Shown: positions 15,498 to 38,723 of the stretch, in pieces
Numbering within the stretch: position 1 is the first letter of the stretch
How the letters are laid out: each line of letters begins with the position of its first letter
From: an uncultured bacterium
Lineage (GTDB): Bacteria; Bacillota; Clostridia; Christensenellales; UBA1242
Direction of reading: 5' to 3'
DNA length: 46,138 nucleotides
Assembly (NCBI GenBank): GCA_949398915.1
Contig: CASLXJ010000003.1
Coordinates: forward strand, 1 to 46,138
Program-made: the position numbers and the translations under genes
The notes under the pieces: model-generated
The model's database searches: none
What the model was told of the DNA's origin: nothing
What the model saw: only the letters and a program-made list of their open reading frames with translations

Positions 15498-17522
15498 ATG
15501 AAAATAAATGTATTGACTCCAAATGTATACAACAGAATATCTGCTGGAGAGGTGGTTGAAAGACCTGCCTCAATTGTTAAAGAGCTTGTAGAAAACAGCA
15601 TTGACGCCGGTGCAAAGAATATAAGAATTGAAATTGAAGGCGGTGGAATTAAAAATATAACCATATCTGATGATGGCTGCGGAATAGATAAAGAAGATAT
15701 TACAGTTGCCTTTCTGCCTCATGCGACCAGCAAAATTAAAGAGGCTGATGACCTTGACAACATAATGAGTCTTGGTTTTAGAGGGGAGGCTCTTGCTAGT
15801 ATTGCTGCTGTTTGCCAAGTGAAACTTTCTTCAAAAACTGCTGAAAGTGTGACAGGTTATTCAATTAAAGTTGATGGAGGGCAGTTTGGGCAAGTATGCG
15901 AAATTGCTCGTTCTAAGGGCACAACTATAAGCTGCTCAAACTTGTTTTTCAATACTCCAGTAAGAGCAAAATTTTTAAGAAAACCTAAGACAGAAGAGGC
16001 GGAAATAACCCATCTTGTAGAGCGTCTTATGCTTTCTTTCAGTGATATTGCTTTTCAGTATTATGTTGATGGCAAACAGATATATAATACATTATCCTGT
16101 AGTATGTCTGACATAATATATACTATATATGGAAAAGAGATATATGACAATTTGGTTGAAGTCAATTATGAAGAGTTTGGAATAAAGGTCACTGGCTATG
16201 TCACAAAACCTAAAATTTCAAAAAGCAATCGCACCTATCAAACACTGTTTGTAAACAATAGATACGTTGAAAATCAACTTGTTTCTGCATGCGTGTCAAA
16301 TATTTATTCAACTTTTCTTATGAAAGGAAGATTTCCTGTTTATGTGCTTTCTTTGACTGTGCCACCTGAAAATGTAGATGTCAATGTTCATCCATCAAAG
16401 CGAGAGGTTAAGTTTGACAATTCAAACAAAATCTATGGGCTTGTGTCTAGGGCTATTGAAAAAGCACTTCTTGCAACTGACCAAATTCAAAACTTTTTAT
16501 CAGCTGGCTATCAAGATGATATAGAGAATTTGACTATATTTGTTGAAGAGCCTAGAGCGAACGGTGGTAATATTTCGAGTCAATCTCAAAAAGAGAATGC
16601 TATTTCAGCAGAAAACAATTTGAGACAGGAAGCGGATAAAAGACAAAATACAAATGCTATAAATAATGGATCTAGCTTTGGCAAAAGCTTTAATGAAAAT
16701 CAAAATAGTGAACAGTATGATTTTAATGATAAAGTTGAAGTTAAAGAAGTTGAAATTGAAAATTTAGGTCAAAATAGCAATAAGAGTGAGAATGAAATTG
16801 ACATAAATCAAGATTTGAAAGCCCTTGAAAACATGTCAATCAAAGACGCTTATAAAGACAACAAAAACAAATCAGTTTTCTTTTTCGACCAATCTGGAGA
16901 AAAGTTTACAAGAGATATTGAAAATGAAACAAAAAGTTTTTTAGAGGCAAGTGTAAAGGATGAAATGAAAATTCTTGGCACAATCTTTAAAACCTACATT
17001 GCAATTGAATATGATGATGCAGTGTATTTTATTGACCAACATGCCGGTCATGAGCGTTTATTGTATGATAAACTTGTAAAAACTGTAAATGAAAACAACA
17101 GCGCAAAGCAGCAACTGCTTGCTCCTTATGTATTCACAGTTGGCGCTAAAGAGTCGCAATCGATTGATTTGCTGATGCCAAGCCTTAAAAATATTGGCTT
17201 TGAAATGACAAAAAACAATTTTACTTATAGTATTACTGAAGTGCCATATCTATTGGCTTATATAAATTTATCAAAGTTTGTAGATGAAATTGTTTCTGAA
17301 AGTGTAAACCTTGAAGGAAAGGCAAGCGATTATATTCATTCAAAATTATGCCAATCAGCTTGCAAACACGCAATCAAAGCAGGTGATACAATAAGCAATG
17401 ATGAGTGCGCTTATATTATAGAAGAGGTCAGAAAGGGCGTTATGCTTTGCCCACATGGTAGACCAATTACTCTTGTTATCACAAAACGCGAGTTTGAAAA
17501 GATGTTTAAAAGGATAGTATAG
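15498..17522 (+). CDS. mutL: DNA mismatch repair endonuclease MutL
   Basis: GEVVERPAS..KELVENSIDA, GFRGEALASI, VDVNVHPSKREV, DQHAGHER, SACK, CPHGRP. Confidence 0.98.
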   Translation: MKINVLTPNVYNRISAGEVVERPASIVKELVENSIDAGAKNIRIEIEGGGIKNITISDDGCGIDKEDITVAFLPHATSKIKEADDLDNIMSLGFRGEALASIAAVCQVKLSSKTAESVTGYSIKVDGGQFGQVCEIARSKGTTISCSNLFFNTPVRAKFLRKPKTEEAEITHLVERLMLSFSDIAFQYYVDGKQIYNTLSCSMSDIIYTIYGKEIYDNLVEVNYEEFGIKVTGYVTKPKISKSNRTYQTLFVNNRYVENQLVSACVSNIYSTFLMKGRFPVYVLSLTVPPENVDVNVHPSKREVKFDNSNKIYGLVSRAIEKALLATDQIQNFLSAGYQDDIENLTIFVEEPRANGGNISSQSQKENAISAENNLRQEADKRQNTNAINNGSSFGKSFNENQNSEQYDFNDKVEVKEVEIENLGQNSNKSENEIDINQDLKALENMSIKDAYKDNKNKSVFFFDQSGEKFTRDIENETKSFLEASVKDEMKILGTIFKTYIAIEYDDAVYFIDQHAGHERLLYDKLVKTVNENNSAKQQLLAPYVFTVGAKESQSIDLLMPSLKNIGFEMTKNNFTYSITEVPYLLAYINLSKFVDEIVSESVNLEGKASDYIHSKLCQSACKHAIKAGDTISNDECAYIIEEVRKGVMLCPHGRPITLVITKREFEKMFKRIV

Positions 17523-20513: not shown

Positions 20514-21668
20514 ATGATTAAAAGAATATCTGTTTTTTGTATTATGTTGTGTATACTATCTACAATATATTGTACTAGTATGCCAATGATGGCTTTTGCA
20601 GCCAATGAAGTCGACCTTACAAGCAAAAGCGCATGTCTTGTAGATTATGCCTCTGGCACAGTTTTATATGAAAAAGATGCAGATAAGCATTTGCCTATTG
20701 CAAGTATGGTAAAAATGATGACTATACTTCTCACACTTGAGGAAATTGAAGGTGGAAATCTTACCGAAGAGACTATGGTTACAACTTCCGAAAATGCTTC
20801 AGGGATGGGCGGCAGTCAGGTGTTTATTGACCCATTTGTTGAATATAGTGCTGGAGACCTTTTGAAAAGTGTAATTATTGCCTCAGCAAATGATGCTTCA
20901 GTTGCACTTGCTGAACATATAAGTGGAAGTGAAAAAACTTTTGTGCTTAGAATGAATGAAAGGGCGAAAGAGCTTGGCATGGAAAATACAAACTATTCAA
21001 ACTGCACGGGCCTTCCAGCGCCAGAACAATATTCTTGTGCAAGAGATTGTGCTACACTTTTGAAAAAAGTTACAAACTTTGATATTTATCATAAATACAG
21101 CACGATTTGGATGGATGAAATTGTTCACCCATCAGGCAGAAAGACTGGAATTGTAAATACAAACAGACTTGTAAAATATTATGATGGCTGTGATGGTGGA
21201 AAGACTGGCTCTACAAATGAAGCAGGTTGCTGTCTTTCAGCGTCAGCAAAAAGAAACAATATGAGACTAATTTCAGTCATTATTGGCGCACAAAACAGCC
21301 AAACAAGATTTAATGAATGTTCAAAACTTTTCAATTATGGTTTTGCAAACTTCGAAAACAAAGAAATTATTGGAATTGCAAATCCATTATTTACTCTTCC
21401 AGTAAACAAAGGCAAAATTGAAAATGCAGACATTTTTGCTCAAGAAGGGTTTTCAGTTGTTATGAAAAAGGGAGATAAGTCTGAGTTTGAAATTTCTTAT
21501 GAAAATCCAAACAAAGTGAACGCTCCAATGACTAAAGGCGACAGCATCGGAAAGGTTTATATCTCAAAAGATGGAAACCTTTTGAAAGAAATCAATCTTG
21601 TAATAGGTCAAGATATCGAAAAACTTTCACTTAAAGATTGTTTTGAAAAGGTTGTAGTTGGCTGGTAA
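20514..21668 (+). CDS. dacF: D-alanyl-D-alanine carboxypeptidase DacF
   Basis: Signal peptide, SMVK, MGGSQVF, SANDA, KTG; forespore-type promoter. Confidence 0.88.
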   Translation: MIKRISVFCIMLCILSTIYCTSMPMMAFAANEVDLTSKSACLVDYASGTVLYEKDADKHLPIASMVKMMTILLTLEEIEGGNLTEETMVTTSENASGMGGSQVFIDPFVEYSAGDLLKSVIIASANDASVALAEHISGSEKTFVLRMNERAKELGMENTNYSNCTGLPAPEQYSCARDCATLLKKVTNFDIYHKYSTIWMDEIVHPSGRKTGIVNTNRLVKYYDGCDGGKTGSTNEAGCCLSASAKRNNMRLISVIIGAQNSQTRFNECSKLFNYGFANFENKEIIGIANPLFTLPVNKGKIENADIFAQEGFSVVMKKGDKSEFEISYENPNKVNAPMTKGDSIGKVYISKDGNLLKEINLVIGQDIEKLSLKDCFEKVVVGW

Positions 21669-27038: not shown

Positions 27039-28111
27039 GAATAGTAGTAGGTATAAGTGGTGGAGTTGATTCTTCTGTAGCTGCCTATCTTTTGAAAGAA
27101 CAGGGGCATGAAGTAATCGGGCTTTTTATGGTTAATTGGGAAGAAAAAGACGGCGCCTGCACAGCAGAAGAAGACTTTGAAGATGTAAAAAGAGTCTGCA
27201 ACAGTATTGGCATACCATATTTTTCTGTGAATTACGCAAAAGAATACTATGACCGTGTGTTTGAATACTTTCTGGATGAGCTAAAAAAAGGAAGGACTCC
27301 AAACCCAGATGTGCTTTGCAATCGTGAAGTTAAATTTGGCCCATTTTTAGAACAAGCATTAAAGCTTGGGGCAGATAAAATTGCCACAGGTCATTATGCA
27401 AAGAAAATTGAAAAAAATGGCAAGTATTATCTTGCAAAAGCAGATGATTTAAACAAAGACCAATCATATTTTTTAAATCAATTAAGTCAAGCACAACTTG
27501 CTTCCGTAATTTTTCCTCTTGAAAATATAGACAAACCTAAAGTACGAGAAATAGCAAAAAAACTTGACCTTTCAAATGCAGAAAAAAAAGATAGCACAGG
27601 CATTTGTTTCATAGGTGAGAGAAATTTTAAAAAGTTTTTAAAAGAATATCTTCCTGCTAAACCCGGAAAAATTCTTGACCTTGAAGGAAAAGAAGTGGGC
27701 ACTCATGAAGGACTTATGTATTATACATTGGGTCAAAGAAGGGGGCTTGGAATAGGCGGAAGAGCGGGCGGAAGCGGGCAACGCTGGTTTGTTGTTAAAA
27801 AAGACCTGCAAAATAACATTCTTTATGTATCTCAAGGTGAAGATGATTTGTTATATAGCGACGGACTTCTTGCAAGCGGAATGAATTGGATACCAGAGCT
27901 TCCAGAGCAAAAAGAATTTGAATGCTTTGCAAAGTTTAGATATCGCCAGCCTGATCAAGCAGTAAAAGTGACAATTATAAGTGATAAAGAAATTAAGGTT
28001 GATTTTAAAGAAAGACAACGAGCAATAACTCCAGGCCAATTTGTAGTATTATATGATGCTGACGGAATTTGTTTAGGCGGCGGCATAATAGATGAAAGTT
28101 TTAATTATTAA
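27035..28111 (+). CDS. mnmA: tRNA 2-thiouridylase MnmA
   Basis: [48 protein letters not shown]. Confidence 0.98.
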
Positions 28112-28116
28112 AATTT

Positions 28117-28145
28117 GAATAATTACCTCCAAAATAAAGATACTA
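28117..28145 (+). promoter_or_regulatory. Putative SigG/SigF promoter
   Basis: GAATA-N17-GATACTA upstream of AAGGAGG. Confidence 0.55.
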
Positions 28146-28162
28146 AATTTAAGGAGGTAAAT

Positions 28163-28387
28163 ATGGTAATTGCAAATTATATCGCCCTTATTCTTCTTTT
28201 AATAGGCGGAATAAATTGGGGTTTAATGGGAATTTGTATGTTCAACTTAGTTTCTTGGCTATGTTTTGGAAATACAATCATTGCAAGAATTATTTATATT
28301 CTCGTATTGCTTGCTGCAATTTGGATTATAATTTCTGCTGCAATCAATGGCGGAATCTTGCTTGCCTACAACTTCGCAAGAACATAA
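28163..28387 (+). CDS. DUF378-family small membrane protein (YuzA-like)
   Basis: ALILLLIGGINWGLMG..FNLV..L...ARIIYILV; SD AAGGAGG before ATG 28163. Confidence 0.85.
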   Translation: MVIANYIALILLLIGGINWGLMGICMFNLVSWLCFGNTIIARIIYILVLLAAIWIIISAAINGGILLAYNFART

Positions 28388-28392
28388 ACACT

Positions 28393-28433
28393 AAAAAACT
28401 CTTATTATCTATCTAAGTAATAAGAGTTTTTTT
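28393..28433. terminator. Bidirectional terminator
   Basis: A6-CTCTTATTA...TAATAAGAG-T7 between convergent genes. Confidence 0.8.
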
Positions 28434-28447
28434 GTTTAATATAAGTT

Positions 28448-29035
28448 TTAAAAGAAGATATTTTCTTCAAGATCGTCAGGGTGTTTTTGCTCGCCTTCGA
28501 GAGTCTCCCATGGATAAACTGCGTCAAGAAATTCTATTCCAAGTTTTTCGCATTCTTCTTTTGAAAGGTTGTTTCCCTTTAGAAAAGCATAGTCTTCATA
28601 AATGGTTTTATCTGTAAATGAAATGCTGTTGTAATTTTTTGCAATGCAAACATAAAGAAGTCTAGCTTGAGGATAAACTTTTAATATTTCATCAATACAA
28701 AGTTTAACGCTTGTTCCAGAGGAGTGCGTGCCTTCAACAATTAAAAAGACAGGGTCTTTTTTATCAATATTTAAATTTGAAAGGGGGTTGAATATGACCT
28801 CTATGTTTTCGCTTTTATCTTTATATGTAATATGCTTTATTTGAATAGGTGCAAATTTTACAATATTAAGCCTATTTGCAAGATAAACAGCAGGCACAGC
28901 TCCGCTTCTTAAAACTGGTACAATGTAATCAACTTTTATTTGATTTTCATTTAAAAATTTACTTAAATTATTGTGTAATTTGTCAATATGCTTAAGAAAT
29001 TCATCATGACTCATAAATCTCATTTCTCGTTTCAT
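28448..29035 (-). CDS. Type I phosphoribosyltransferase-family protein (Gpt-like) with variant PRPP loop
   Basis: DYIVPVLRSGAVPA, VFLIVEGTHSSGTS, C-terminal YPWE; SD AAGGTG before ATG 29035. The ORF track's longer start runs through the tRNA. Confidence 0.8.
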   Translation of the reverse strand: MKREMRFMSHDEFLKHIDKLHNNLSKFLNENQIKVDYIVPVLRSGAVPAVYLANRLNIVKFAPIQIKHITYKDKSENIEVIFNPLSNLNIDKKDPVFLIVEGTHSSGTSVKLCIDEILKVYPQARLLYVCIAKNYNSISFTDKTIYEDYAFLKGNNLSKEECEKLGIEFLDAVYPWETLEGEQKHPDDLEENIFF

Positions 29036-29049
29036 AATCACCTTTAAGA

Positions 29050-29087
29050 TATATATTGTATTATGCATGTCAGACATAATACTGTAT
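29050..29087. repeat. 38-bp palindromic element, copy 1
   Basis: TATATATTGTATTATGCATGTCAGACATAATACTGTAT; 35/38 identical to 36921-36958. Confidence 0.85.
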
Positions 29088-29094
29088 ATAGTAT

Positions 29095-29182
29095 TGGCGT
29101 AGAGAACAGGATTCGAACCTGCGGAGGCAAAAACCTCATACGCTTTCCAAGCGTACGCCTTAAACCGCTCGGCCATCTCTAC
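29095..29182 (-). tRNA. tRNA-Ser(GGA)
   Basis: Reverse complement folds as GTAGAGA/TCTCTAC acceptor stem, TACGC-TTGGAAA-GCGTA anticodon arm, long variable arm, GTTCGAATC T-loop, G73 and encoded CCA. Confidence 0.97.
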
Positions 29183-29190
29183 ATACCTTT

Positions 29191-29219
29191 AATTTAGCAT
29201 ATTATAAAAATTTAGTCAA
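29191..29219 (-). promoter_or_regulatory. SigA promoter of tRNA-Ser
   Basis: TTGACT-N17-TAAATT with extended TG on the minus strand. Confidence 0.6.
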
Positions 29220-29319
29220 TAAAATTACTTGACTTTTCAATTTTAGTCATTACTTAGATAATATATTTCAAAATGTCATTTTAAGAAAAATCATAAGTTA
29301 GGGTGCTTGACTTTTAAAT

Positions 29320-29348
29320 AAAAAAGAACGCAGATTGCGCTCTTTTTT
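29320..29348 (-). terminator. Terminator after the YjzC-like gene
   Basis: A6-GAACGCA-GAT-TGCGCTC-T6 inverted repeat. Confidence 0.7.
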
Positions 29349-29353
29349 AAAGG

Positions 29354-29521
29354 TTATTCTCTCTCGTTATCGAGTTCGTAATGGCTTCCGCTATGTTGAG
29401 TGGCAGGAAATCTTTGTCCCTTTTTAAGCTCGGTACTTCCGCCGCATTTGCCATTCTTGTCATAGCAAGAATAACTTCCTGATTTTGGTGCTTGTTCACC
29501 AGGTCTGTATTGTTTGCTCAT
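29354..29521 (-). CDS. YjzC-like small protein (55 aa, absent from the ORF track)
   Basis: Manual translation MSKQYRPGEQAPKSGSYSCYDKNGKCGGSTELKKGQRFPATQHSGSHYELDNERE*; PGxxAPxSGxY...GxRFPxT pattern; SD GGAGG; own terminator. Confidence 0.85.
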   Translation of the reverse strand: MSKQYRPGEQAPKSGSYSCYDKNGKCGGSTELKKGQRFPATQHSGSHYELDNERE

Positions 29522-29537
29522 TTTTAACCTCCATTAG

Positions 29538-29566
29538 TATTGTGTGCAAATAATGATATAATATAC
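29538..29566 (-). promoter_or_regulatory. Putative SigG promoter of the YjzC-like gene
   Basis: GTATA-N17-CACAATA, fitting the B. subtilis SigG consensus GHATA-N17/18-CAHAHTA. Confidence 0.6.
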
Positions 29567-29632
29567 AAAATATATTAAAAAATATTTGTTTTATTAAAAT
29601 ATTTATTGTATACTTTTGGCATTGGAGGAAAA

Positions 29633-30520
29633 ATGGAAGATTGTATTTTTTGCAAGATAATCAGAGGAGAAATTCCATCATATAAAATATATGAGGACAA
29701 TTATACATATTCATTTTTAGATATAAGTAACGACGGCAATGGTCATATTTTGGTAGTGCCTAAAAAGCATTGTGAGAATGTGCTTGATTGTGAAGAGGGG
29801 CAGCTTGCACATGTTTTAGAAACTGTGAAAAAGATTGGCAATCACCTTGTAAACAATTGTGGGTTTAATGGAATAAACATATTGAATGCCAGTGGAAAAG
29901 CTGCTGAGCAAAGTGTATTCCATCTTCATTTTCATATTTTACCTAGAAAAGATGGTGATGGTCTATCAGTATTTCCAAAGCTTGAAAAGAATGATAAAAC
30001 TCTTGAACAGATGTGCCAGCTGCTGAAAATTGAAAATGAGAAAGAAGAAGAGAAAGTTGTTGAAAACAGCTCAAATTGTAAAAATATAGTTTTATATACA
30101 GACGGAGCTTGTTCTGGAAATCCAGGAATGGGGGGCTGGGGTGCTATATTATCCTATAATGGAAAAGAAAAAGAGCTTTCTGATGGTGAGGAAATGACAA
30201 CCAACAACAGAATGGAGCTGATAGCTGTTATAAAAGGCCTAGAAGCGATTAAAGAAAGTTGCAAGGTTGATATTTACAGTGATTCAGCCTATGTTGTCAA
30301 TGCTTTCCTTCAAGATTGGATATCAAAATGGAAGAGTAATGGCTGGAAGACAACAAAAGGTGAAGTGCTTAATTTAGATTTATGGAAAAGACTGACTGAC
30401 TTACTTGACAAGCATGAAGTTGTTTGGCATAAAGTAAAGGGGCATGCAGACAATGCTTTAAATAATCGTTGCGACGCACTTGCAAGAGGAGAAATAGAAA
30501 AATTAAAAAAGACTAAGTAA
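29633..30520 (+). CDS. rnhA: HIT-family nucleotide hydrolase fused to ribonuclease HI
   Basis: N half: DCIFCKI, GHILVVPKKH, QSVFHLHFHILPR. C half: YTDGACSGNPG, TNNRMEL, YSDSAY, WHKVKGHA, NNRCDALA. One frame; SD GGAGG before ATG 29633. Confidence 0.9.
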   Translation: MEDCIFCKIIRGEIPSYKIYEDNYTYSFLDISNDGNGHILVVPKKHCENVLDCEEGQLAHVLETVKKIGNHLVNNCGFNGINILNASGKAAEQSVFHLHFHILPRKDGDGLSVFPKLEKNDKTLEQMCQLLKIENEKEEEKVVENSSNCKNIVLYTDGACSGNPGMGGWGAILSYNGKEKELSDGEEMTTNNRMELIAVIKGLEAIKESCKVDIYSDSAYVVNAFLQDWISKWKSNGWKTTKGEVLNLDLWKRLTDLLDKHEVVWHKVKGHADNALNNRCDALARGEIEKLKKTK

Positions 30521-30537
30521 TCTTAGTCTTTTTTTTT
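30505..30537. terminator. Bidirectional terminator
   Basis: A6-GACTAAG-TAAT-CTTAGTC-T9. Confidence 0.85.
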
Positions 30538-30588
30538 ATTGTTTAAATTAAAATGTATTCAAATCATCGTTTTATATTTTTATCAACT

Positions 30589-31146
30589 TTAATCAACATT
30601 GATAAGTTTTTCATAAATTATTTCATATATGCTTGGAGCTGTAGTTTTCCATTTTTGCACAGCCTCGTTTGCACTTTGTCTTGTAGGTGCTTTTATAGTA
30701 AGAATAAACATAGGGGATGTTGATTGAGGCTCGTAAATTTTAAGCTCTACATTATAAGATCCGTCTTCATTTTTGCGATAGGTTGAGCTGTATTCCTGAG
30801 ATGATTTGACGCTGAGTTTGTTTGCTTGAAGATAGGTGGAAATTTCTTCGCGTTTTTCAAGTGAAATTCTTTTATAAAGATGAGAAAGGCACTCTCTGCC
30901 TTCATAGGTGAGGGCAAAAAGCTCTTTACTATCAGCGTCATCACTTATTTTATACAAGAGTTTTGAGTCTACGAGGTCATGTATGATGGTTTTGCAGTCC
31001 ATATAATTGGCAATCCAATCATTTTTCATTGAACAAATGTCCAAAATAGAGTCTTCTGTAAGTGGAATTTCCATTGTTTCAATTACAAAAAGCATGGTAA
31101 GTTTATCTTGTATAATGCGTTCTTTTTCGGTAGGTAATTTATTCAT
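30589..31146 (-). CDS. DUF4364-like winged-helix protein
   Basis: KLTMLFVI..MEIPLT, wHTH-like LTYEGRECL, C-terminal APTRQSA...WKTTAPSIYE; TGgTATAAT 7 nt before ATG. Confidence 0.7.
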   Translation of the reverse strand: MNKLPTEKERIIQDKLTMLFVIETMEIPLTEDSILDICSMKNDWIANYMDCKTIIHDLVDSKLLYKISDDADSKELFALTYEGRECLSHLYKRISLEKREEISTYLQANKLSVKSSQEYSSTYRKNEDGSYNVELKIYEPQSTSPMFILTIKAPTRQSANEAVQKWKTTAPSIYEIIYEKLINVD

Positions 31147-31287
31147 AATTTATATTATACCACATTTTCTGAATAAATCAAATTCTTTTGTTTGCATTTT
31201 TTCAAGTTTGTGCTATACTATTTTAGTAAAGTTTTTGTTTGATTATTATTGCTAAATTGAACATAACTTAAATTTTAGAGAGGATTT

Positions 31288-32007
31288 ATGGAAAACAACA
31301 ATATTGAAAAATTTTTAAACTCATGCGATGAACTTATCGGCTGCAAATTTCTCGTTGCCGAATATAAACTTCAAAAGATGCTTCAAGAGCTTGCAAATGC
31401 ACAAGAGATTTGCTCACTTATAGGTGAGTGTTTAGAGTCTTTCAATCGTGATAGAGAATTTTCAAAGTCATTTGTCCAAGATGGAAATGGTGAATTTATG
31501 TTTATTCTTCCAGACGAGGAATTTAAAATTTTGGCTTTGGTATTTTGCACCCTTGTTGATATCGATGCAAAGAAAATTGATTTCACAGACTTTGTAAAGA
31601 GATTTTTTGGTACATATCAAGAATTTGTAAACACAATGATAATCCCATTTAGAGATTTGATTAAAGAGGCGTTTGGTTTCAGTCAAGAAGAGCAACTTTC
31701 TCAAAATGAAAATGCTGAAGAAAGTGAATCTGAAGAAAATGAAAACTTTGATGAAGAATACGAAGACAATAATGAAGATTTTGACAAGTTTGACCGCGCA
31801 CAAAAAATTGCTGTTCAAATATTAGGACAACTTGAATATGCAAGGGATGACTATGCAAATTCAATGGCAAAACAAATTTGCAGAGCAATTGTAAAATGTG
31901 CAAATCAAAATGATGAAGAGGTTATGTCATCATTGGCTTTTGCTTTAAAGTCTGCAAAAGCAAAGCAAGTTAAGTTTTTAGTGAAAGAGCTTTGTGAGCT
32001 TTTCTAA
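31288..32007 (+). CDS. Hypothetical helical protein with acidic linker
   Basis: 239-aa ORF with GAGG SD, 18 nt upstream of the SPFH gene. Confidence 0.8.
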   Translation: MENNNIEKFLNSCDELIGCKFLVAEYKLQKMLQELANAQEICSLIGECLESFNRDREFSKSFVQDGNGEFMFILPDEEFKILALVFCTLVDIDAKKIDFTDFVKRFFGTYQEFVNTMIIPFRDLIKEAFGFSQEEQLSQNENAEESESEENENFDEEYEDNNEDFDKFDRAQKIAVQILGQLEYARDDYANSMAKQICRAIVKCANQNDEEVMSSLAFALKSAKAKQVKFLVKELCELF

Positions 32008-32025
32008 TTAAATTAAGGAGAAAAT

Positions 32026-33102
32026 ATGAAAGCGTTATTTATTATATTGCCAATAGCGTTGCTTGTTGGAATGCTTGTTTGGGCGTTTTTGGCTTACAGA
32101 AAATATAAGAAAAATAAGGTTGTAAAAAGCAATTTAGACAAAAGTTTTATTATTCAACTAGTTGCCAGTTTATCAGTTGCAATTGCGTCACTGTTTGTTT
32201 TGGTTTTTGTGCCAGCAAGCATTCATCAAGTAGATGCAGGAGAGGTAGCTGTTGTTAAAGTTTGGGGTGATGCAAAGTATGTGAAAACAGCAGGCATTCA
32301 CTATGATCTTTGGATAAGTCATAAATATGAAATTTATGATTGCAAAGTGCAGCAAATTGTTACAAATACAGAGACCTATTCAAGCGATGGTCAAACCATG
32401 GATATCGAGCTTGTTATTCAATATCAATTACAACAAGAAAATGCAATGAAAATTGCTAAAAACTATGGAGGGCTTGAGAGACTTGAAAGCAGAATTGAAA
32501 CAGTAGCTCTTGAAAAAATGAAAAGCGTCTTATCACAAAAGTCTGCAATGGTGATTATTGAAACTAGATCAACAGTTTCACCAGCAATTGAGCAAAGTGT
32601 AAGAGAGGCAATTACTGATGACTATTTTGTAGATATTACTACTGTTGTGCTTACTGATATAAGCTTTTCAGAAGCGTTTGAAAAGACGGTAGAAGACAAA
32701 ATGATTGCTGAGCAAGAAAAACTTAAGGCTCAGTATGAAAAAGAGAAAGCAATTATTCAAGCTGAGCAGGCATTGGAAGTAGCGAAACTTGATGCTGAGG
32801 CAAAACTTGCAGCAGCTGAAGGTGAGGCAAAGGCTCTTGAAGCAATTGCAAAAGCACAAGCAAATGCTTTAAAATTGAAATCTATTGAAGCTGCAAGAAT
32901 GCTTGGTTTCAAAATCAATGAAACAACTACAGAAGAAGGCGTTGAATATAACATTGATTTTGAAGGAAAAACTTCAGAAGAAATTAAAGTTATAAGTGAT
33001 TATCTCAAATATATTGAATATCTTTCTGTTTGGAATGGTGAGCTTCCAGATGTTGTTACAGGAAATGATGCAACAATTTTGGTGCCAACACCTTCAAAAT
33101 AA
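32026..33102 (+). CDS. SPFH/band 7 (prohibitin-like) membrane protein
   Basis: Two N-terminal TMs, VDAGEVAVV, SSDGQ, ISFSEAFEKTVEDK, Ala/Glu coiled coil, WNGELP. Confidence 0.9.
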   Translation: MKALFIILPIALLVGMLVWAFLAYRKYKKNKVVKSNLDKSFIIQLVASLSVAIASLFVLVFVPASIHQVDAGEVAVVKVWGDAKYVKTAGIHYDLWISHKYEIYDCKVQQIVTNTETYSSDGQTMDIELVIQYQLQQENAMKIAKNYGGLERLESRIETVALEKMKSVLSQKSAMVIIETRSTVSPAIEQSVREAITDDYFVDITTVVLTDISFSEAFEKTVEDKMIAEQEKLKAQYEKEKAIIQAEQALEVAKLDAEAKLAAAEGEAKALEAIAKAQANALKLKSIEAARMLGFKINETTTEEGVEYNIDFEGKTSEEIKVISDYLKYIEYLSVWNGELPDVVTGNDATILVPTPSK

Positions 33103-33117
33103 TCTATATAATCTATT

Positions 33118-33150
33118 AAAGACTCTTATCGTCGGATAAGAGCCTTTTTT
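33118..33150. terminator. Terminator between the SPFH gene and ylbJ
   Basis: AAAGACTCTTATC-GTCG-GATAAGAGCCTTTTTT. Confidence 0.8.
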
Positions 33151-33243
33151 AATCACAATAAAACACAATTATTATTGTTTCTTTTTATATATAATAATCA
33201 AATTATACAAAAAAACAATAGTTTAAATATTTAAAAGGAAATA

Positions 33244-34182
33244 TTAAATAAACAGCACAATGGCTACTGAAATTAAAGCGGCAAGGCAAGCATGAGTAAA
33301 CTTTTGCAAGCAAAATAGCGTAATTGGCATTTTAAGTCTTGTAAGCATTGAAATAGACTGCAAAATTGTTGAAATACCACCAAAGCTTATTACAAAAGTT
33401 GCAGCTGTAATAGCCCATTTGCTATTAAAATATTTTGATATATCTTGGCAACCTTTAGTTATTTCGACCATACCTTCAAGAATGCTTGCAGCTTTAGGTG
33501 GAAAAAGGTTGAAAATCGGAGATAGGGAGGTGATAACAACAAAGAAAATTGCTATTATTGTGCCAACAATCAACATACTAATGGCAGAATCTAAAACTAT
33601 TGAAGTTATGTCAAAACTGCTTTTTTCTTTGTTTTCGCCTTTATTCTCTTCAATTATTTCAATAGAATCATTCTCTTTTGCTTTAAGATTTCTATATAAT
33701 AGTCCATTTAAGAAGGCACCAATTATGTGAGATGAAAAGATTATATAACCATATAAAGGATTTGCAAGCATTGAAATTCCCACTGCGCCTATAATAAACA
33801 TTGGGCCCGAGGTGGAGCAAAAACTGCACATTTTGAAGGCTTCGCTTTTTTTAATTTTTCCATGTTCATAAAGCTCGGCAGTCATCTTTGCGCCTACTGG
33901 ATAACCTGAAATTATGCTTGTAAGAAAAACGAGAGAAGAAGAGGAAGGTGTTTTAAAAAGTTTTCTGCAAGGCTTTTCCATGAATTTAGTAAACTTGTCC
34001 ATGTTGCCAATAGAAGTTAAAATTTTAACAAAAAAAATGAAGGGTAAAACACTTGGCAACACATTAAAAGCCCAGGCAGATATGCCATTTAAAGTGGCTT
34101 CAATATATACTGATGGAAAAATAACCATGTTTATTAAGATATAGATTATAAAAAAAGATAATAAAGTGTTATATTTTTTCAT
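33244..34182 (-). CDS. ylbJ: Sporulation integral membrane protein YlbJ-like
   Basis: VLPSVLPF, SGYPVGAK, SGPMFIIGAVG, EITKG, ISFGG; multi-TM. Confidence 0.85.
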   Translation of the reverse strand: MKKYNTLLSFFIIYILINMVIFPSVYIEATLNGISAWAFNVLPSVLPFIFFVKILTSIGNMDKFTKFMEKPCRKLFKTPSSSSLVFLTSIISGYPVGAKMTAELYEHGKIKKSEAFKMCSFCSTSGPMFIIGAVGISMLANPLYGYIIFSSHIIGAFLNGLLYRNLKAKENDSIEIIEENKGENKEKSSFDITSIVLDSAISMLIVGTIIAIFFVVITSLSPIFNLFPPKAASILEGMVEITKGCQDISKYFNSKWAITAATFVISFGGISTILQSISMLTRLKMPITLFCLQKFTHACLAALISVAIVLFI

Positions 34183-34198
34183 TTATTGCTCCAAAAAT

Positions 34199-34228
34199 TT
34201 GACAGGATAAAAACATTTTTGTTATACT
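34199..34228 (+). promoter_or_regulatory. SigA promoter of pta-ackA
   Basis: TTGACA-N18-TATACT with extended TG. Confidence 0.65.
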
Positions 34229-34334
34229 AAAACAATGAATGGTTGATTTTATGTTTGATTTGAAAATAAATTAAAAATAATTGATCTTCATAGTCAATTT
34301 ATTCATTGCATCATTGATTTAGAAGGATAGATTT

Positions 34335-35333
34335 ATGAAAATTAAAGATTTGTATAAAAAAGCAAAAGCTTTGCAAAAGACTGTTGTATTTCCAGAAGCT
34401 GGATTTAGTGACAGGACTTTAGAAGCAGTAAAATATATTCAAAGAAAAAAAATAGCAAAACCTGTATTGATAGGAGATGAAAGTGCTTTAGTTTTAAGAG
34501 ATAAAAGCTTGGCGCAATTTCAAATAATCAGCCCATCCACATTTGCTTCTAGGGATGAGCTTGTCAAGTGCCTTTATGAGAAAAGAAAAGATAAGGGAAT
34601 GACAATGGAAGAGGCAGAAAAATTTACTGATGACCCTTATTACTTTGCAACTTTGCTTGTCGAATGTGGATATGCCGACGGTATGGTTGCCGGGGCAGAA
34701 GCTTCAACAGCAAATACTGTAAGACCAGCTCTTCAAATAATAAAAGCTAAAAAGAAGGGCGGAATTGTCTCATCATGTTTCATCATGTTTGGAAAAAACA
34801 AATTTTTGGGTGATAAGTGCTTGATATTATCTGACTGTGGTGTAATAAAACATCCAAATGAGGAAGAGCTTTATCAAATAGCCTGTCAAAGTGTTGAGAC
34901 TTACAAAGCTTTAGGGCTTGATAATCCAAAAGTTGCATTCTTATCATTTTCGACTAATGGCTCGGCTGAAGATGAAAGCTTGGTTGTTGTCAGACAAGCT
35001 TATAAAAAGTTTAAGAAAGCGGGAATTGCTGACTGTGATGGAGAAATTCAATTTGATGCGGCAATGGTCGAGCGTGTGGCTAAACAGAAATGCCCAGAAA
35101 GTCAGCTAGGTGGAGATGCAAATATTCTCATTTTCCCAGATTTAAATAGCGGAAACATTTGTTATAAAGCTATGCAATATTTGGGCAATTTAAGGGCACT
35201 TGGCCCTACATTACAAGGACTTAACAAGCCAATCAATGACTTGTCAAGAGGATGCACGGCTGAAGATATCGTTGCAATGACAGCTGTGACAGTATTACAA
35301 ACAAACAACAAACAAAATAAGGAGGAAAAATGA
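34335..35333 (+). CDS. pta: Phosphate acetyltransferase
   Basis: VVFPE, RPALQII, DGEIQFDAA, FPDLNSGNICYK, NDLSRG. Confidence 0.96.
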   Translation: MKIKDLYKKAKALQKTVVFPEAGFSDRTLEAVKYIQRKKIAKPVLIGDESALVLRDKSLAQFQIISPSTFASRDELVKCLYEKRKDKGMTMEEAEKFTDDPYYFATLLVECGYADGMVAGAEASTANTVRPALQIIKAKKKGGIVSSCFIMFGKNKFLGDKCLILSDCGVIKHPNEEELYQIACQSVETYKALGLDNPKVAFLSFSTNGSAEDESLVVVRQAYKKFKKAGIADCDGEIQFDAAMVERVAKQKCPESQLGGDANILIFPDLNSGNICYKAMQYLGNLRALGPTLQGLNKPINDLSRGCTAEDIVAMTAVTVLQTNNKQNKEEK

Positions 35334-36532
35334 AAATTTTAGTTATCAACGCAGGAAGTTCTTCATTGAAATTTCAACTTTTCAATATGGAAGATGAAAG
35401 CGTAATTGCAAAAGGAAATTGTGAAAAAATAGGCCTTGAAGGATCATTTATTGGTTATAAAACAACTGGTGATAAAAAAGAAGTATTGGTTTCATTGCCA
35501 GACCATAATGCAGCCATTGCAAAGGTTTTTGAAGTGCTTACCGATGAAAAAGAGGGTGTAATCAAATCAGTAGATGAAATCTCTGCTGTAGGTCACCGTT
35601 ATGTTCAAGGTGGTTGGCTGTTTGATAAGAGTGTACTTATAAATGATAAGGTTATTGAAGAGCTTACTCCGCTTATGGAGCTTTCTCCACTTCACTCAAA
35701 AGCAAATATTGCAGGAATTAAAGCTTGCATTGAAGCAATGCCAAATACACCACAAGTTGCGGTATTTGATACAGCTTTCCATGCAACAATGCCTGCAAAA
35801 GCTTATATGTATGGAATCAAATATGAAGACTATGAAAAATATCATGTAAGAAAATATGGTTTTCATGGCACAAGTCATAGATATGTGACAAGTGAAGTTG
35901 CTAAAATCTTAAATAAAGATGTAGATGAAGTAAATGTAATTACAGTCCATGTTGGAAACGGCTCTTCAATTACAGCGGTTAAAAACGGAAAAAGCATTGA
36001 TACTACAATGGGCTTGACTCCACTTGAAGGTCTTATCATGGGTACTCGCTCGGGTGATATTGATCCAGGCGCTTTTGATTATCTTGCTGATAAGAAGGGG
36101 CTTTCAAGCAGTGATACACTCAAATATCTCAATAAAGAATGTGGAATTTTAGGCGTAAGCGGCGTATCAAGCGATATGAGAGAGCTTAACACTGCAATTG
36201 ACGAGGGAAATGAAAGAGCTAAACTTGCACTTGATATGCTTGTATATAAAGTAAAGAAATATATCGGCTCATACCTTGCTGCTCTTGGTAAAACTGATGC
36301 CATTGTGTTCACTGGTGGTATAGGTGAAAATCAAGAAAATCTTAGATCAGGAGCTCTTGAAGATATGCAAAACTTAGGCATTGAAATTGATGTTGAGAAA
36401 AATGACCATCTTCCAAGAGGTACTGCTGAAGAAATCAGCACTGCAAATTCTAAGGTAAGAGTTTTCAGAATCCCAACTGATGAAGAAAAGTTGATTGCCA
36501 GAGATACAAAGGCAATAGTTGAAAAATTATAA
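35330..36532 (+). CDS. ackA: Acetate kinase
   Basis: INAGSSSLK, VFDTAFH, YGFHGTSH, MGTRSGD, FTGGIGEN, PTDEE. Confidence 0.98.
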   Translation: MKILVINAGSSSLKFQLFNMEDESVIAKGNCEKIGLEGSFIGYKTTGDKKEVLVSLPDHNAAIAKVFEVLTDEKEGVIKSVDEISAVGHRYVQGGWLFDKSVLINDKVIEELTPLMELSPLHSKANIAGIKACIEAMPNTPQVAVFDTAFHATMPAKAYMYGIKYEDYEKYHVRKYGFHGTSHRYVTSEVAKILNKDVDEVNVITVHVGNGSSITAVKNGKSIDTTMGLTPLEGLIMGTRSGDIDPGAFDYLADKKGLSSSDTLKYLNKECGILGVSGVSSDMRELNTAIDEGNERAKLALDMLVYKVKKYIGSYLAALGKTDAIVFTGGIGENQENLRSGALEDMQNLGIEIDVEKNDHLPRGTAEEISTANSKVRVFRIPTDEEKLIARDTKAIVEKL

Positions 36533-36603
36533 ATTTAACATATGATTATTTTAAAACTCTTGAAAAACAGGGGAATAAAAATAAAATTAAAACAACAAAA
36601 TGC

Positions 36604-36632
36604 TTGACAAATGAGGTTTAATTTGTTAAACT
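36604..36632 (+). promoter_or_regulatory. SigA promoter of rpmF
   Basis: TTGACA-N17-TAAACT with extended TG. Confidence 0.7.
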
Positions 36633-36665
36633 CTTAAAGCATTATGATTTTTGAAGGAGGAAAAA

Positions 36666-36857
36666 ATGGCAGTTCCAAAGCATAAGGTTTCAAAAGCTAG
36701 AAGAAATTCAAGACACTCAGCTAATTCAGTTGCAGTTGCTCCAACACTTGTAGAATGTCCAAAATGTCATGAGATGAAAAAACCTCACACAGTTTGTAAG
36801 AAATGTGGGACATATAAGGGTGAAACCATCATTGAGAAAAAAGAAGAAAGTAAATAA
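36666..36857 (+). CDS. rpmF: 50S ribosomal protein L32 (Zn-ribbon type)
   Basis: MAVPKHKVSKARRNSR, CPKC...PHTVCKKCGTY; SD AAGGAGG. Confidence 0.97.
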   Translation: MAVPKHKVSKARRNSRHSANSVAVAPTLVECPKCHEMKKPHTVCKKCGTYKGETIIEKKEESK

Positions 36858-36866
36858 TTTGTTTTT

Positions 36867-36899
36867 AAAGTTCTCACTTATTTTAGTGAGGACTTTTTT
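36867..36899 (+). terminator. Terminator after rpmF
   Basis: AAAGTTCTCACT-TATTTT-AGTGAGGACTTTTTT. Confidence 0.85.
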
Positions 36900-36920
36900 C
36901 TTGCATTAAGCATGTTTTAC

Positions 36921-36958
36921 TATATATTGTATTATGTATGTCATACATAATACTTTAT
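36921..36958. repeat. 38-bp palindromic element, copy 2 (perfect 12-1-12 core)
   Basis: Core GTATTATGTATG-T-CATACATAATAC (36929-36953); 35/38 identical to 29050-29087. Confidence 0.85.
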
Positions 36959-37064
36959 GTTGTTATTCAAGCAATTAAAATTAAACTCAAAATTTTTATT
37001 GCAAATTTAGAAAATATTTGTTATTATTATATATGTATATAAATAAACGAAAATTAAAGGGTGA

Positions 37065-38096
37065 ATGATGAAAATTGTAGTTGATGCTTTTGGTGGAGAT
37101 AATGCACCTTTAGAAATAGTAGAAGGCGTGAAACTTGCGCTTGATAAAATCAAAGATTTAGAGATTGTATTGTGTGGAAAGGAAGAAATTCTGAAAAGCA
37201 TGATAAAAGGATATGAAAGCCGCATTGAGATTATTGCTGCCGATGATGTGATTAAAAATGAAGATCATCCAACGCTTGCAATAAGACAAAAAAAAGAGTC
37301 TTCTCTTGTTAAGGCTTATGATGCTTTAAAAGAAAGAGATGACATTATTGGTCTTGTTTCTGCTGGAAGCACTGGGGCAGTGCTTGCAGGTGCAATCATG
37401 AAAATAGGCAGAATAAAAGGAATTTCAAGACCTGCTCTTGCTCCAATTCTTCCTACAAAGAAAAATAATGATGTGATTATTATTGACAGTGGCGCAAATG
37501 TAGACTGCAAGCCTGTCAATCTTTTGCATTTCGCACTTATGGGCTCGGCCTACTATTCAATTATTTACAATAAAGAAAATCCAAGAGTTGCACTTCTCAA
37601 TAATGGCTCAGAGGAAGGGAAAGGCAATGAACTTACAAAAGAATGTCTGCCTCTTCTTAAAAAAGCACCTATCAACTTCATCGGAAATAAAGAGGGCGGT
37701 GATTTCATGAGCGGCGAGGTTGATGTCATGGTGGCTGATGGCTTTGCTGGTAATGTGCTGTTGAAAGGCACAGAAGGTGCAGTTATGGCTGTTATGTCTC
37801 TTATGAAACACAGCATTAAGTCACATTTCTGGAGTAAAATTGGCTATCTCTTTATGGGAAAGACATTTAAAGAATTGAAAGGAAGAGTTGATATTTTAAA
37901 TAAACATGGAGGCTCTCCACTGCTTGGCTGCAAAAAGCTTGTAGTGAAAAACCACGGCTCTTGTAAGCGTCACAATATTTGTTCTTCAATTGAACAAACT
38001 GTTTATCTTGACAAAAATCACCTGATAAACAAAATTGAGCAGGCGCTTGAAAAGCTTAATACAGAGCTTGGTGAGGGGACAGCAGAGGAAGCTTAA
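37065..38096 (+). CDS. plsX: Phosphate acyltransferase PlsX
   Basis: VDAFGGDNAP, VSAGSTGA, RPAL, DSGAN, DGFAGN..LK; TTGCAA-N17-TATTAT at 36999-37027. Confidence 0.96.
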   Translation: MMKIVVDAFGGDNAPLEIVEGVKLALDKIKDLEIVLCGKEEILKSMIKGYESRIEIIAADDVIKNEDHPTLAIRQKKESSLVKAYDALKERDDIIGLVSAGSTGAVLAGAIMKIGRIKGISRPALAPILPTKKNNDVIIIDSGANVDCKPVNLLHFALMGSAYYSIIYNKENPRVALLNNGSEEGKGNELTKECLPLLKKAPINFIGNKEGGDFMSGEVDVMVADGFAGNVLLKGTEGAVMAVMSLMKHSIKSHFWSKIGYLFMGKTFKELKGRVDILNKHGGSPLLGCKKLVVKNHGSCKRHNICSSIEQTVYLDKNHLINKIEQALEKLNTELGEGTAEEA

Positions 38097-38723
38097 ATGA
38101 AAAAAATATCTTATAAATTTAAAAATCCTTCACTTTTAGAAAGAGCTTTGACACACAGCTCAAGGTCAGAACAGAATTATGAGCGACTTGAATTTTTAGG
38201 TGATAGCATTTTAGATTTTTTAGTCGGAGAATATTTTTACTTGAATTGCGATGACAGTGAAGGTAAATTGAGTGTGCTTAGAAGCCATTATGTTTCAGAA
38301 AACTATCTTTCAAAAATATTTGATGAGCTTGAGCTTGAAAAGGTTGTAAAGCTTGGGAAAAGCTGTCAAGGAGAGATTACAAAGTCGATTAAAGGTGATG
38401 TCGTGGAAGCTGTAATTGCCGCAATTTACCTAGACGGCGGGCTTGAAAATGCAAAAAATTTCATTTATTTGCATTTTGACTTGAATGCTTATAAGGACAT
38501 AATTGATGACAATTATAAATCAAAATTGCAAGAGCTTGTTCAAGGAAACTTTAAGTGCAAAATGAGTTATGATACTCGTGCTTTAAAAGAGGAAGATGGC
38601 TTTATTTCCACTTTTTATATGGATGAAGATGAAATAGCCTCAGGCAGCGGAAAAAGCAAGCAAGAGGCTGAGCAAGTTGCTGCCAAAAAAGCAATTGACA
38701 AATTGTTTTTAATCAATAATTAA
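38097..38723 (+). CDS. rnc: Ribonuclease III
   Basis: ALTHSS, ERLEFLGDS, DVVEA..AAIYLDGG, dsRBD YKSKLQE...GKSKQEAEQ. Confidence 0.95.
   Translation: MKKISYKFKNPSLLERALTHSSRSEQNYERLEFLGDSILDFLVGEYFYLNCDDSEGKLSVLRSHYVSENYLSKIFDELELEKVVKLGKSCQGEITKSIKGDVVEAVIAAIYLDGGLENAKNFIYLHFDLNAYKDIIDDNYKSKLQELVQGNFKCKMSYDTRALKEEDGFISTFYMDEDEIASGSGKSKQEAEQVAAKKAIDKLFLINN

Follow-up and report, generated by a model that had tools for sequence, protein, structure and literature searches.

The stretch of DNA considered here (the window, 46,138 nt) represents contig C3 of G000, the source genome, an assembly of an uncultured bacterium of the order Christensenellales which comprises 99 contigs with 34.6% GC and is rated 74.6% complete. 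Between the genes of this stretch lie two near-identical palindromic elements of 38 nt, located 7.9 kb apart on the same strand, which agree in 35 of their 38 positions (three differences) and share the reading TATATATTGTATTATG[C/T]ATGTCA[G/T]ACATAATACT[G/T]TAT. A repeat search of the window lists the same pair as 43 nt, 88%. The core of each element is a 25-nt palindrome consisting of two 12-nt arms around one central base (12-1-12). Core scores given below were obtained with a position weight matrix (PWM), and scores of the flanking boxes with a second PWM derived from nrdD promoters.

29050-29087: copy 1, full 38-nt element, TATATATTGTATTATGCATGTCAGACATAATACTGTAT
29058..29082, plus strand: core of copy 1, GTATTATGCATG-T-CAGACATAATAC, 25-nt form, 37.2 bits
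29046..29094: copy 1 with two AT-rich C-N8-G boxes (29046-29061 and 29079-29094; 8.0 and 11.3 bits with the nrdD-box PWM), 33 nt apart centre to centre
36921-36958: copy 2, full 38-nt element, TATATATTGTATTATGTATGTCATACATAATACTTTAT
36929..36953, plus strand: core of copy 2, GTATTATGTATG-T-CATACATAATAC, perfect 12-1-12 palindrome, 40.3 bits
36917..36965: copy 2 with its flanking boxes (36917-36932 and 36950-36965; left box 14.6 bits)

In copy 1, two positions of the palindrome are non-complementary, and the arm with the extra TATG/CATG comes first on the plus (leading) strand; across the entire window the GC skew ranges from +0.13 to +0.21. The first-pass annotation, made from the sequence alone, had reported both the near-identical pair and the perfect palindrome of copy 2, and both were borne out: a search with GTATTATGNATGTCANACATAATAC at up to 3 mismatches found 2 places in the window (4 strand matches) and none in 100 dinucleotide-preserving shuffles. 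Both elements are intergenic, as had been described. Copy 1 lies between the 3' end of a tRNA-Ser gene (29095-29182, minus), which the element abuts, and the start of a PF00156 phosphoribosyltransferase (PRTase) gene (29035, minus), the start codon of which is 22 nt away. Copy 2 is preceded by the rpmF terminator and followed after 111 nt by plsX (37065), with smc a short distance further downstream. The plsX promoter, read by eye as TTGCAA-17-TATTAT, is conserved, and copy 2 is situated upstream of this promoter and not over it. The 7.9-kb stretch between the copies encodes housekeeping functions, among them pta, ackA and rpmF, and its gene order matches that of the related genome G006. No Rfam family matches at or near either copy.

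A PWM scan covering all 1,369,745 bases of the G000 assembly gave five sites at 33.5-40.3 bits and one at 28.8 bits, and the next match followed at 19.7 bits. The five strong sites and the intermediate one are located as follows.

Strong: before plsX-rnc-smc (copy 2)
Strong: before the PRTase gene (copy 1)
Strong: between queA and tgt, 45 nt before tgt
Strong: before a small mcsA-like open reading frame (ORF), followed by mcsB-clpC
Strong: after an rpsA-like gene, about 130 nt before a tRNA
Intermediate: on contig C38, between an ABC transporter gene and valS, which converge there

All five strong sites are intergenic, four of them upstream of a co-directional gene, and the genes beside the sites have no common pathway. 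Over the family, distances from a site to the start codon range from 22 to about 430 nt. At the mcsA-like locus (C65:4178-5431), the site and then the mcsA-like ORF, mcsB and clpC come directly after the tex terminator, and there is no ctsR at this locus. The window itself holds two weaker members of the family.

16099..16119, plus strand: 21-nt form GTAGTATGTCTGACATAATAT inside the 674-aa ORF 15498-17522, 1 mismatch to GTAKTATGN5CATAMTAC, 19.7 bits with the 25-nt PWM
20539..20574, minus strand: weak member in the frame ATATTGTAG-N17-ATAC at the 5' end of ORF 20514-21668, with a 14.7-bit box

The gene start orthologous to ORF 20514-21668 bears a 21-nt site in G006 (C4:214550).

Comparison with relatives reduces the family to the arms GTAKTATG and CATAMTAC around a short, variable centre, which is 5 nt long in the majority of species and 9 nt long in the G000 clade. 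Throughout the genus, AT-rich C-N8-G boxes at a distance of 33 nt flank the site. The 25-nt form corresponds to the 21-nt sequence GTAKTATG-TCAGA-CATAMTAC with an extra TATG in one arm, by which it becomes asymmetric. At up to 3 mismatches the 25-nt pattern is found in 5 of 24 genomes of the same genus and in none of 16 from other families. The 21-nt pattern (8-5-8), searched with no more than 2 mismatches, matches 57 of the 61 genomes of the genus with up to 12 copies each, compared with 0-5 for the reversed control; with no more than 1 mismatch it matches 26 of 121 genomes of the order (control 0-1), G132 from another family having 11. The individual places are conserved as well. The site before plsX is also occupied in G061, G014, G044 and G010, with the order rpmF-site-plsX in G014, and the site before tgt recurs in G061 and in G009 (queA-site-tgt). 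Within the 330 nt before plsX of 30 genus genomes, most carry at the same place the 21-nt palindrome GTATTATGC-N3-GCATAATAC or variants thereof, framed by ATATWGT...ACWATAT; PlsX identity falls to 58% within the genus and amounts to 98% between G061 and G000. In G010, three palindrome units repeat at an exact 33-nt interval (25 nt and an TATATATA-like 8-mer), forming arrays that sit before plsX and before an M50-like peptidase gene (L002:1501-1600, L009:1501-1600). Around one of the G132 sites (158749), complementarity continues for about 14 nt beyond either end, so that the site forms the middle of a much longer inverted repeat (C1:158735-158783).

The variation among copies helps to distinguish a binding site from a folded transcript. 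Among 30 sites from 30 genomes, 28 arm departures from GTATTATG were counted and just 1 of these 28 is mirrored in the other arm, a ratio to be read with the selection of these sites at up to 2 mismatches to the symmetric pattern, by which double changes are disfavoured. Sequence changes in the G000 sites break arm pairing too. Additionally, many copies lie inside coding sequence at orthologous positions, as in an rluD-like gene (21-nt palindrome, G000 C7:11250-11285; also L092, L103, L104, L096 and L098), where the palindrome spans the codons S-I-M-(H/Q/R)-C-I-L directly before the conserved PLDIVYEDE and variation is confined to the central three bases, altering the residue (H/Q/R). This pattern points to a constraint on the DNA itself. 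(The PLDIVYEDE codons themselves read as an NrdR-like box.) Since the arm departures are not compensatory, the comparison shows, at the level of sequence, a family of the protein-site kind and not an RNA hairpin, and the suggestion of the first-pass annotation that the elements are sites for a DNA-binding protein gains support from these changes and from the orthologous copies in coding sequence. A selfish or structural repeat, be it a REP/MITE-like element or a hairpin in transcripts, would agree with the palindromic nature, the mostly extragenic location in G000 and the tandem 33-nt-period arrays of G010; the uncompensated arms, a 12-1-12 geometry which leaves no real loop and the lack of an Rfam match speak against it, and such an origin appears hardly credible. 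In particular, REP elements have many dispersed extragenic copies; here, copies are few, 5-12 in number, occupy orthologous places across a deep genus, sometimes within genes, and are present in other families, because of which the REP-like repeat proposed earlier is unlikely.

Where these sites lie on the chromosome can best be judged in less fragmented relatives. In G006 (9 contigs), all 4 of the 21-nt matches are on contig C4 (242,085 nt), and all four matches of G063 likewise share one contig. On G006 C4, genes occupy the plus strand as far as about 133.5 kb and the minus strand from there on, and such a convergent gene-strand switch is a signature of the terminus; 17 of the 25 arm 8-mers on this contig fall within 108-138 kb. 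When the ORFs of G000 were mapped onto G006 C4, every contig with a strong or intermediate site landed there, at 84-233 kb, and two contigs with weaker members did so too.

C65: 84-90 kb
C52: 90-91 kb
C38: 98-107 kb
C10: 156-129 kb
Window, reversed: 233-190 kb
C59 and C7 (weaker members): 110-128 kb

The contigs that map to C4 make up 25.7% of the G000 assembly, and the chance of finding six out of six sites there is about 3e-4. Other genomes were checked directly by GC skew. On contig C2 of G061 (20 contigs; C2 of 162,673 nt), skew is +0.07 to +0.13 over 0-50 kb and -0.14 to -0.27 beyond, the cumulative skew peaks at 47.5 kb, a tyrosine recombinase gene (xer) is found at 52.7 kb, and 25-nt sites are located at 43.9 and 113.4 kb. 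Contig C6 of G044 has its skew switch at about 21-22 kb, xer at 16.3-17.3 kb and sites at 26.2 and 88.5 kb. In G132 (45% GC), the skew of a 327-kb contig peaks at 108.5 kb beside xer (49% identical, 109.9-111.0 kb); of the 11 best sites in the genome, 9 belong to this contig, including one at 108,377, and at up to 3 mismatches about 25 sites extend from 20 to 318 kb. The skew switch is beside xer in G137 and G164 (family f8) as well, with a palindrome about 230 nt upstream of this gene in G137. The association with the terminus hence holds directly in two families by GC skew and in G000 by synteny. An origin-proximal, parS-like reading was rejected on two grounds: in G006 and G063 the contigs with the sites contain neither dnaA nor parB, and genes on G006 C4 converge at the strand switch. 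The family is real, conserved at orthologous places and confined to the terminus-proximal part of the chromosome. The robust result is thus a terminus-region family of palindromes which, judged from their sequence pattern, bind a protein. Scanning the genome and its relatives and mapping copies relative to origin and terminus, as the first-pass annotation had proposed, proved decisive and yielded more copies, their conservation and their location around the terminus.

Two genes at the switch encode candidate binders. The first is the xer gene, the product of which is a XerS/XerC-like tyrosine recombinase (G006 C4, 127.7-128.8 kb). XerS is its best-scoring family (NF003462, 180.1 bits, below the cut-off of 267), and it also remains below the cut-offs of XerD and XerC, with XerD scores of 117-156 bits across four genomes versus 329.6. 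Each genome has a single strong Xer-type match; in G000 it is interrupted by a contig break, with one part of the gene at the end of C10 and the other at the start of C7. Palindromes are located within 1.5 kb of xer in G132, G137 and G006. About 40 nt after the xer stop codon, 7 of 7 genomes carry a compact unit made up of a TATAAT-type promoter, a hairpin over both a GGAG ribosome-binding site and the start of a tiny ORF (MLH...), and a terminator (G000 C7:690-800; G006 C4:127667-127691; L119-L123), which is identical in 25 of 25 nt between G000 and G006 while the xer protein is merely about 70% identical; this unit could be a leader or a small RNA.

The second candidate is a PadR-family protein, the gene of which adjoins the skew switch (G000 C10:24051-26045). 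It combines an N-terminal winged helix (PF03551, 67 bits) with a long acidic low-complexity linker and C-terminal membrane helices, the latter read from the sequence, and G132 encodes a PadR-family protein of the same build directly after xer. In seven genomes (G000, G061, G044, G009, G014, G006 and G132), one palindrome is located 22-29 nt upstream of the -35 box of the PadR gene (TGTTGACW-17-TATAAT). The terminator-protein genes of E. coli and B. subtilis also adjoin one of their own sites. Compared by sequence with the PDB, the PadR domain matched ordinary regulators of the PadR family, with no terminator protein among them. When the membrane domain was searched against the order, hits came from the genus only (4/121); as it missed even the protein of G132, it says nothing on distribution.

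On balance, the two window elements are best read as terminus-region docking sites for chromosome organisation or processing, comparable to matS/MatP or XDS/XerD, and this assignment is favoured with modest confidence. A protein encoded at the terminus would bind the palindromes and would organise or process the terminus region, so that the sites probably have a role in chromosome handling rather than in turning individual genes on and off; among the options named in the first-pass annotation, a chromosome-organisation protein with dispersed sites fits best, given conserved copies around the terminus. If the sites are such docking sites, the single XerS-like recombinase is a plausible if tentative binder, the membrane-anchored PadR-family protein, which could tether the terminus region to the membrane, is a possible but more doubtful one, and the remaining odds fall to some other protein.

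The comparison with known systems supports this assignment to a different degree for each of them. Like matS of E. coli, the palindromes are short, number from a handful to a few dozen per genome, are confined to the terminus, can be genic or intergenic and do not need a given orientation; unlike matS, the site of 21-25 nt is longer and in one clade asymmetric. The family consensus GTAKTATG-N5/9-CATAMTAC also bears no resemblance to the 13-bp matS consensus, and a search of the 74.6% complete G000 for MatP (PF06303) gave no match, while its control matched E. coli. The streptococcal and lactococcal XerS/difSL system likewise has a single recombinase gene at the GC-skew switch, with XerS as the best-scoring family here and palindromes at most 1.5 kb from the gene in G132, G137 and G006. 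It differs in the score (180 vs 267 bits), in the many copies and in the fact that none adjoins xer in G000 or G061, and the palindromes presumably do not resemble difSL. For the B. subtilis terminus, parts of PMC11840125 and PMC11894783 describe dif-like XDS sites at which XerD unloads SMC. As there, several scattered sites are found in the terminus of a Firmicute which encodes a Xer protein in this region, the arms contain the TTATG/CATAA words that also occur in dif arms, and smc downstream of copy 2 may be added as a further likeness. The geometry differs from dif, and the recombinase is a single XerS/XerC-like enzyme below cut-offs, with no dif identified to compare with.

Several observations weigh against the docking-site interpretation. 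The map positions of G000 rest on synteny with G006, because the assembly is 74.6% complete and in 99 contigs, and four of the six G061 sites are on contigs without known distance to the terminus. In G132, sites reach 88 kb to one side and 210 kb to the other side of the switch, which is a broad zone. The arms are everted relative to dif (TTATG...CATAA and not CATAA-N6-TTATG), and CATAA-N6-8-TTATG was not found at the sites. No convincing dif was detected either with a CATAA-N6-8-TTATG search or with a dif core, which at up to 2 mismatches gave far too many matches. G000 and G061 have no palindrome within 2.9 kb of xer, and G137 and G164 lack any visible PadR-like gene within 8 kb of xer. The flanking boxes, for which the docking-site reading does not account, resemble NrdR boxes. 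Finally, several sites are near promoters (22 nt before the PRTase start, 45 nt before tgt), where an effect on transcription is possible.

In the course of the dif search, a pair of 12-nt arms (ATAACATAATAG) was noticed 150-200 nt downstream of xer, in facing orientation and 13 nt apart. The pair occurs in G000, G061, G044 and G014 (G000 C7:~815-860; L119:13871; L120:4061; L123:5351) and shares ACATAATA with the palindrome arms. As a universal dif these 12-13-12 arms were rejected, being absent from G009 and G010. A short-word BLAST between the terminus regions of G000 and G006 gave only coding matches, the conserved hairpin with the tiny ORF after xer, and an 18-mer.

The main rival to terminus organisation is a polar replication-fork trap, in which the palindromes would act as Ter-like barriers bound by a terminator protein, letting forks enter the terminus but not leave it. 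Such a trap would explain why the strand that reads GTAKTATG-TATG-TCAKAC is the leading strand (by contig GC skew) at six of six G061 sites, with C2:43908 (plus) and C2:113378 (minus) on opposite sides of the switch and each on the leading strand, and at two of two G044 sites, so that the orientation flips at the terminus in eight out of eight cases. Both window copies also read this polar way on the plus strand, although the genes next to copy 1 are on the minus strand. Moreover, the number of sites (6-12) and their layout on both sides of the terminus resemble RTP-Ter and Tus-Ter, and B. subtilis Ter sites are imperfect inverted repeats, too. Polarity is nevertheless missing in G132, where the central base on the leading strand is T at 12 and A at 9 of 21 sites on the contig (counted by eye), in G014 the site before plsX is asymmetric in the reverse sense, and some sites are perfect palindromes, copy 2 being one apart from its centre base. 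The polar letters T and G could come from strand-biased mutation or from descent from one copy, and neither RTP (PF02334) nor Tus (PF05472) was found in the 74.6% complete G000, with controls matching B. subtilis and E. coli. Taken together, a fork trap is considered unlikely. Likewise speculative is a mixed arrangement in which the membrane-anchored PadR protein would bind the palindromes and tether the terminus to the membrane or division site, the 25-nt form of the G000 clade adding polarity as a fork trap; if true, this tether would be a Clostridial counterpart of MatP built from unrelated parts. A conventional transcription factor using the palindromes as operators for plsX-rnc-smc, tgt, mcsA-mcsB-clpC, the PRTase and other genes is improbable, including the narrower version in which the PadR-family protein is a plain autoregulated stress regulator. 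It could account for the intergenic position of all strong sites and the co-directional gene behind four of them, for the conserved position before plsX and tgt, for mcsA-mcsB-clpC lacking ctsR at its locus and for the fixed distance to the PadR promoter in seven genomes. The sites are not read as operators of their neighbours because these genes share a map position and no pathway; in addition, the C38 site is between convergent gene ends, further copies are inside coding sequence at orthologous places, distances to start codons vary widely, and the plsX copy does not cover its promoter. A regulator replacing FapR, as the first-pass annotation had considered, is unsupported for the same reasons, the neighbouring genes being unrelated, several copies lying inside coding sequence and map position being what they have in common.

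Recombination between the copies, with excision or inversion of the 7.9-kb segment, or a role of one palindrome as dif, seems highly improbable in spite of a single XerS-like recombinase encoded at the terminus, a G132 palindrome at the skew maximum (108,377 vs 108,500) and the G137 palindrome close to xer. Conserved arms with a variable centre do correspond to the core-site architecture of tyrosine recombinases as given in parts of PMC5241119 and PMC2965235 (excerpts of PMC3025954 on Xer sites were used for comparison as well). Genomes carry, however, 6-25 copies and not one, the segment in question holds housekeeping genes in an order shared with G006, and the centres of the two copies differ (GCATGTCAGAC vs GTATGTCATAC). 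A junction linking 29.07 and 36.94 kb was not present in RNA contigs of 4 runs, which is weak evidence as contigs drop rare forms. Of the earlier proposal of a recombinase target, what stands is that the XerS-like enzyme of the terminus is one of the two candidate binders; there is no sign of an excision of 29.07-36.94 kb. Equally far-fetched is the idea that the elements are NrdR sites made of two boxes with a 17-bp linker, which would give NrdR a second target set. G000 does encode nrdR and nrdD, and with a PWM built from 34 boxes in 30 nrdD promoters of the genus, 13 of 48 matches above 9 bits in G000 are flanks of the palindrome family (own count). Box pairs (each above 4 bits, sum above 18) number four, all 33 nt apart, with none at other spacings of 20-44. 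Some flanking boxes fit all six of C4, A6, A8, T9, T11 and G13 and others miss one or two. The 16-nt flanking boxes share the AT-rich C-N8-G core with NrdR box pairs, and also their spacing of about three helical turns. NrdR proteins are described in parts of PMC12051234 as binding box pairs with spacers of 14-17/18 bp. The palindromic elements differ from NrdR sites in that conservation is strongest in the 17-nt linker and weak in the outer halves of the boxes, which are degenerate, while, according to parts of PMC13584703, linkers of true sites are not conserved and usually measure 15-16 bp. Flanking boxes score 8-15 bits versus 20.8 for the nrdD box, and the canonical boxes of genus nrdD promoters are 31-32 nt apart centre to centre, not 33. 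No site precedes a ribonucleotide reductase (RNR) gene; nrdD is on another contig with its own boxes without palindrome arms, and the G132 sites read by eye had AT-rich or extended-palindrome flanks and no C-N8-G boxes. In the G000 nrdD promoter (C53:6266-6370), canonical NrdR boxes overlap TTGACA-17-TACTAT. A published regular expression for NrdR boxes was undiscriminating in the AT-rich G000, where it matched 4143 boxes, with pairs present at all spacings. Further readings that were considered, and that no test supported, are sigma-E-like promoter words, a PlcR-like box, Lrp-type arrays and, for the arrays of G010, a loxP-like 12-8-12 arrangement.

Neither sites of this kind nor a membrane PadR protein encoded at the terminus turned up in a literature search without supplements. 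To our knowledge, little is known on the marking of the terminus outside enterobacteria (matS/MatP, Tus-Ter) and Bacillus (RTP-Ter, XDS/XerD). The palindromes described here provide a compact, sequence-defined site family in tiny-genome gut Clostridia which extends across a large genus and into other families of the order and comes with two candidate binders. What the sites do can be examined with synthetic DNA and purified proteins in spite of the uncultured state of the organisms. In practical terms, the sites can serve as a terminus marker in fragmented metagenome-assembled genomes, and they call for caution in regulon prediction, since a palindrome that is conserved in front of plsX, tgt or clpC does not have to function as an operator.

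Some further features of the window and its transcripts were noted. Mouse-gut metatranscriptome contigs from the same 4 runs, compared over 28000-38600, reveal that the organism is present in RNA libraries; among the RNA contigs listed, none spans 36850-37065, and the contigs give no transcript starts. The only joint is formed by RNA contigs of two runs (X10, X11), which connect position 34697 to 35849 and skip 1151 nt within pta/ackA; because merely 21 nt are on the shorter side, this joint probably stems from another organism or a repeat and bears no relation to the sites. The window begins inside a 16S rRNA gene, the 3' part of which occupies positions 1-474 (model positions 1062-1533), and at 29606-30520 on the plus strand a single ORF fuses a HIT domain (PF01230) to an RNase H domain (PF00075).

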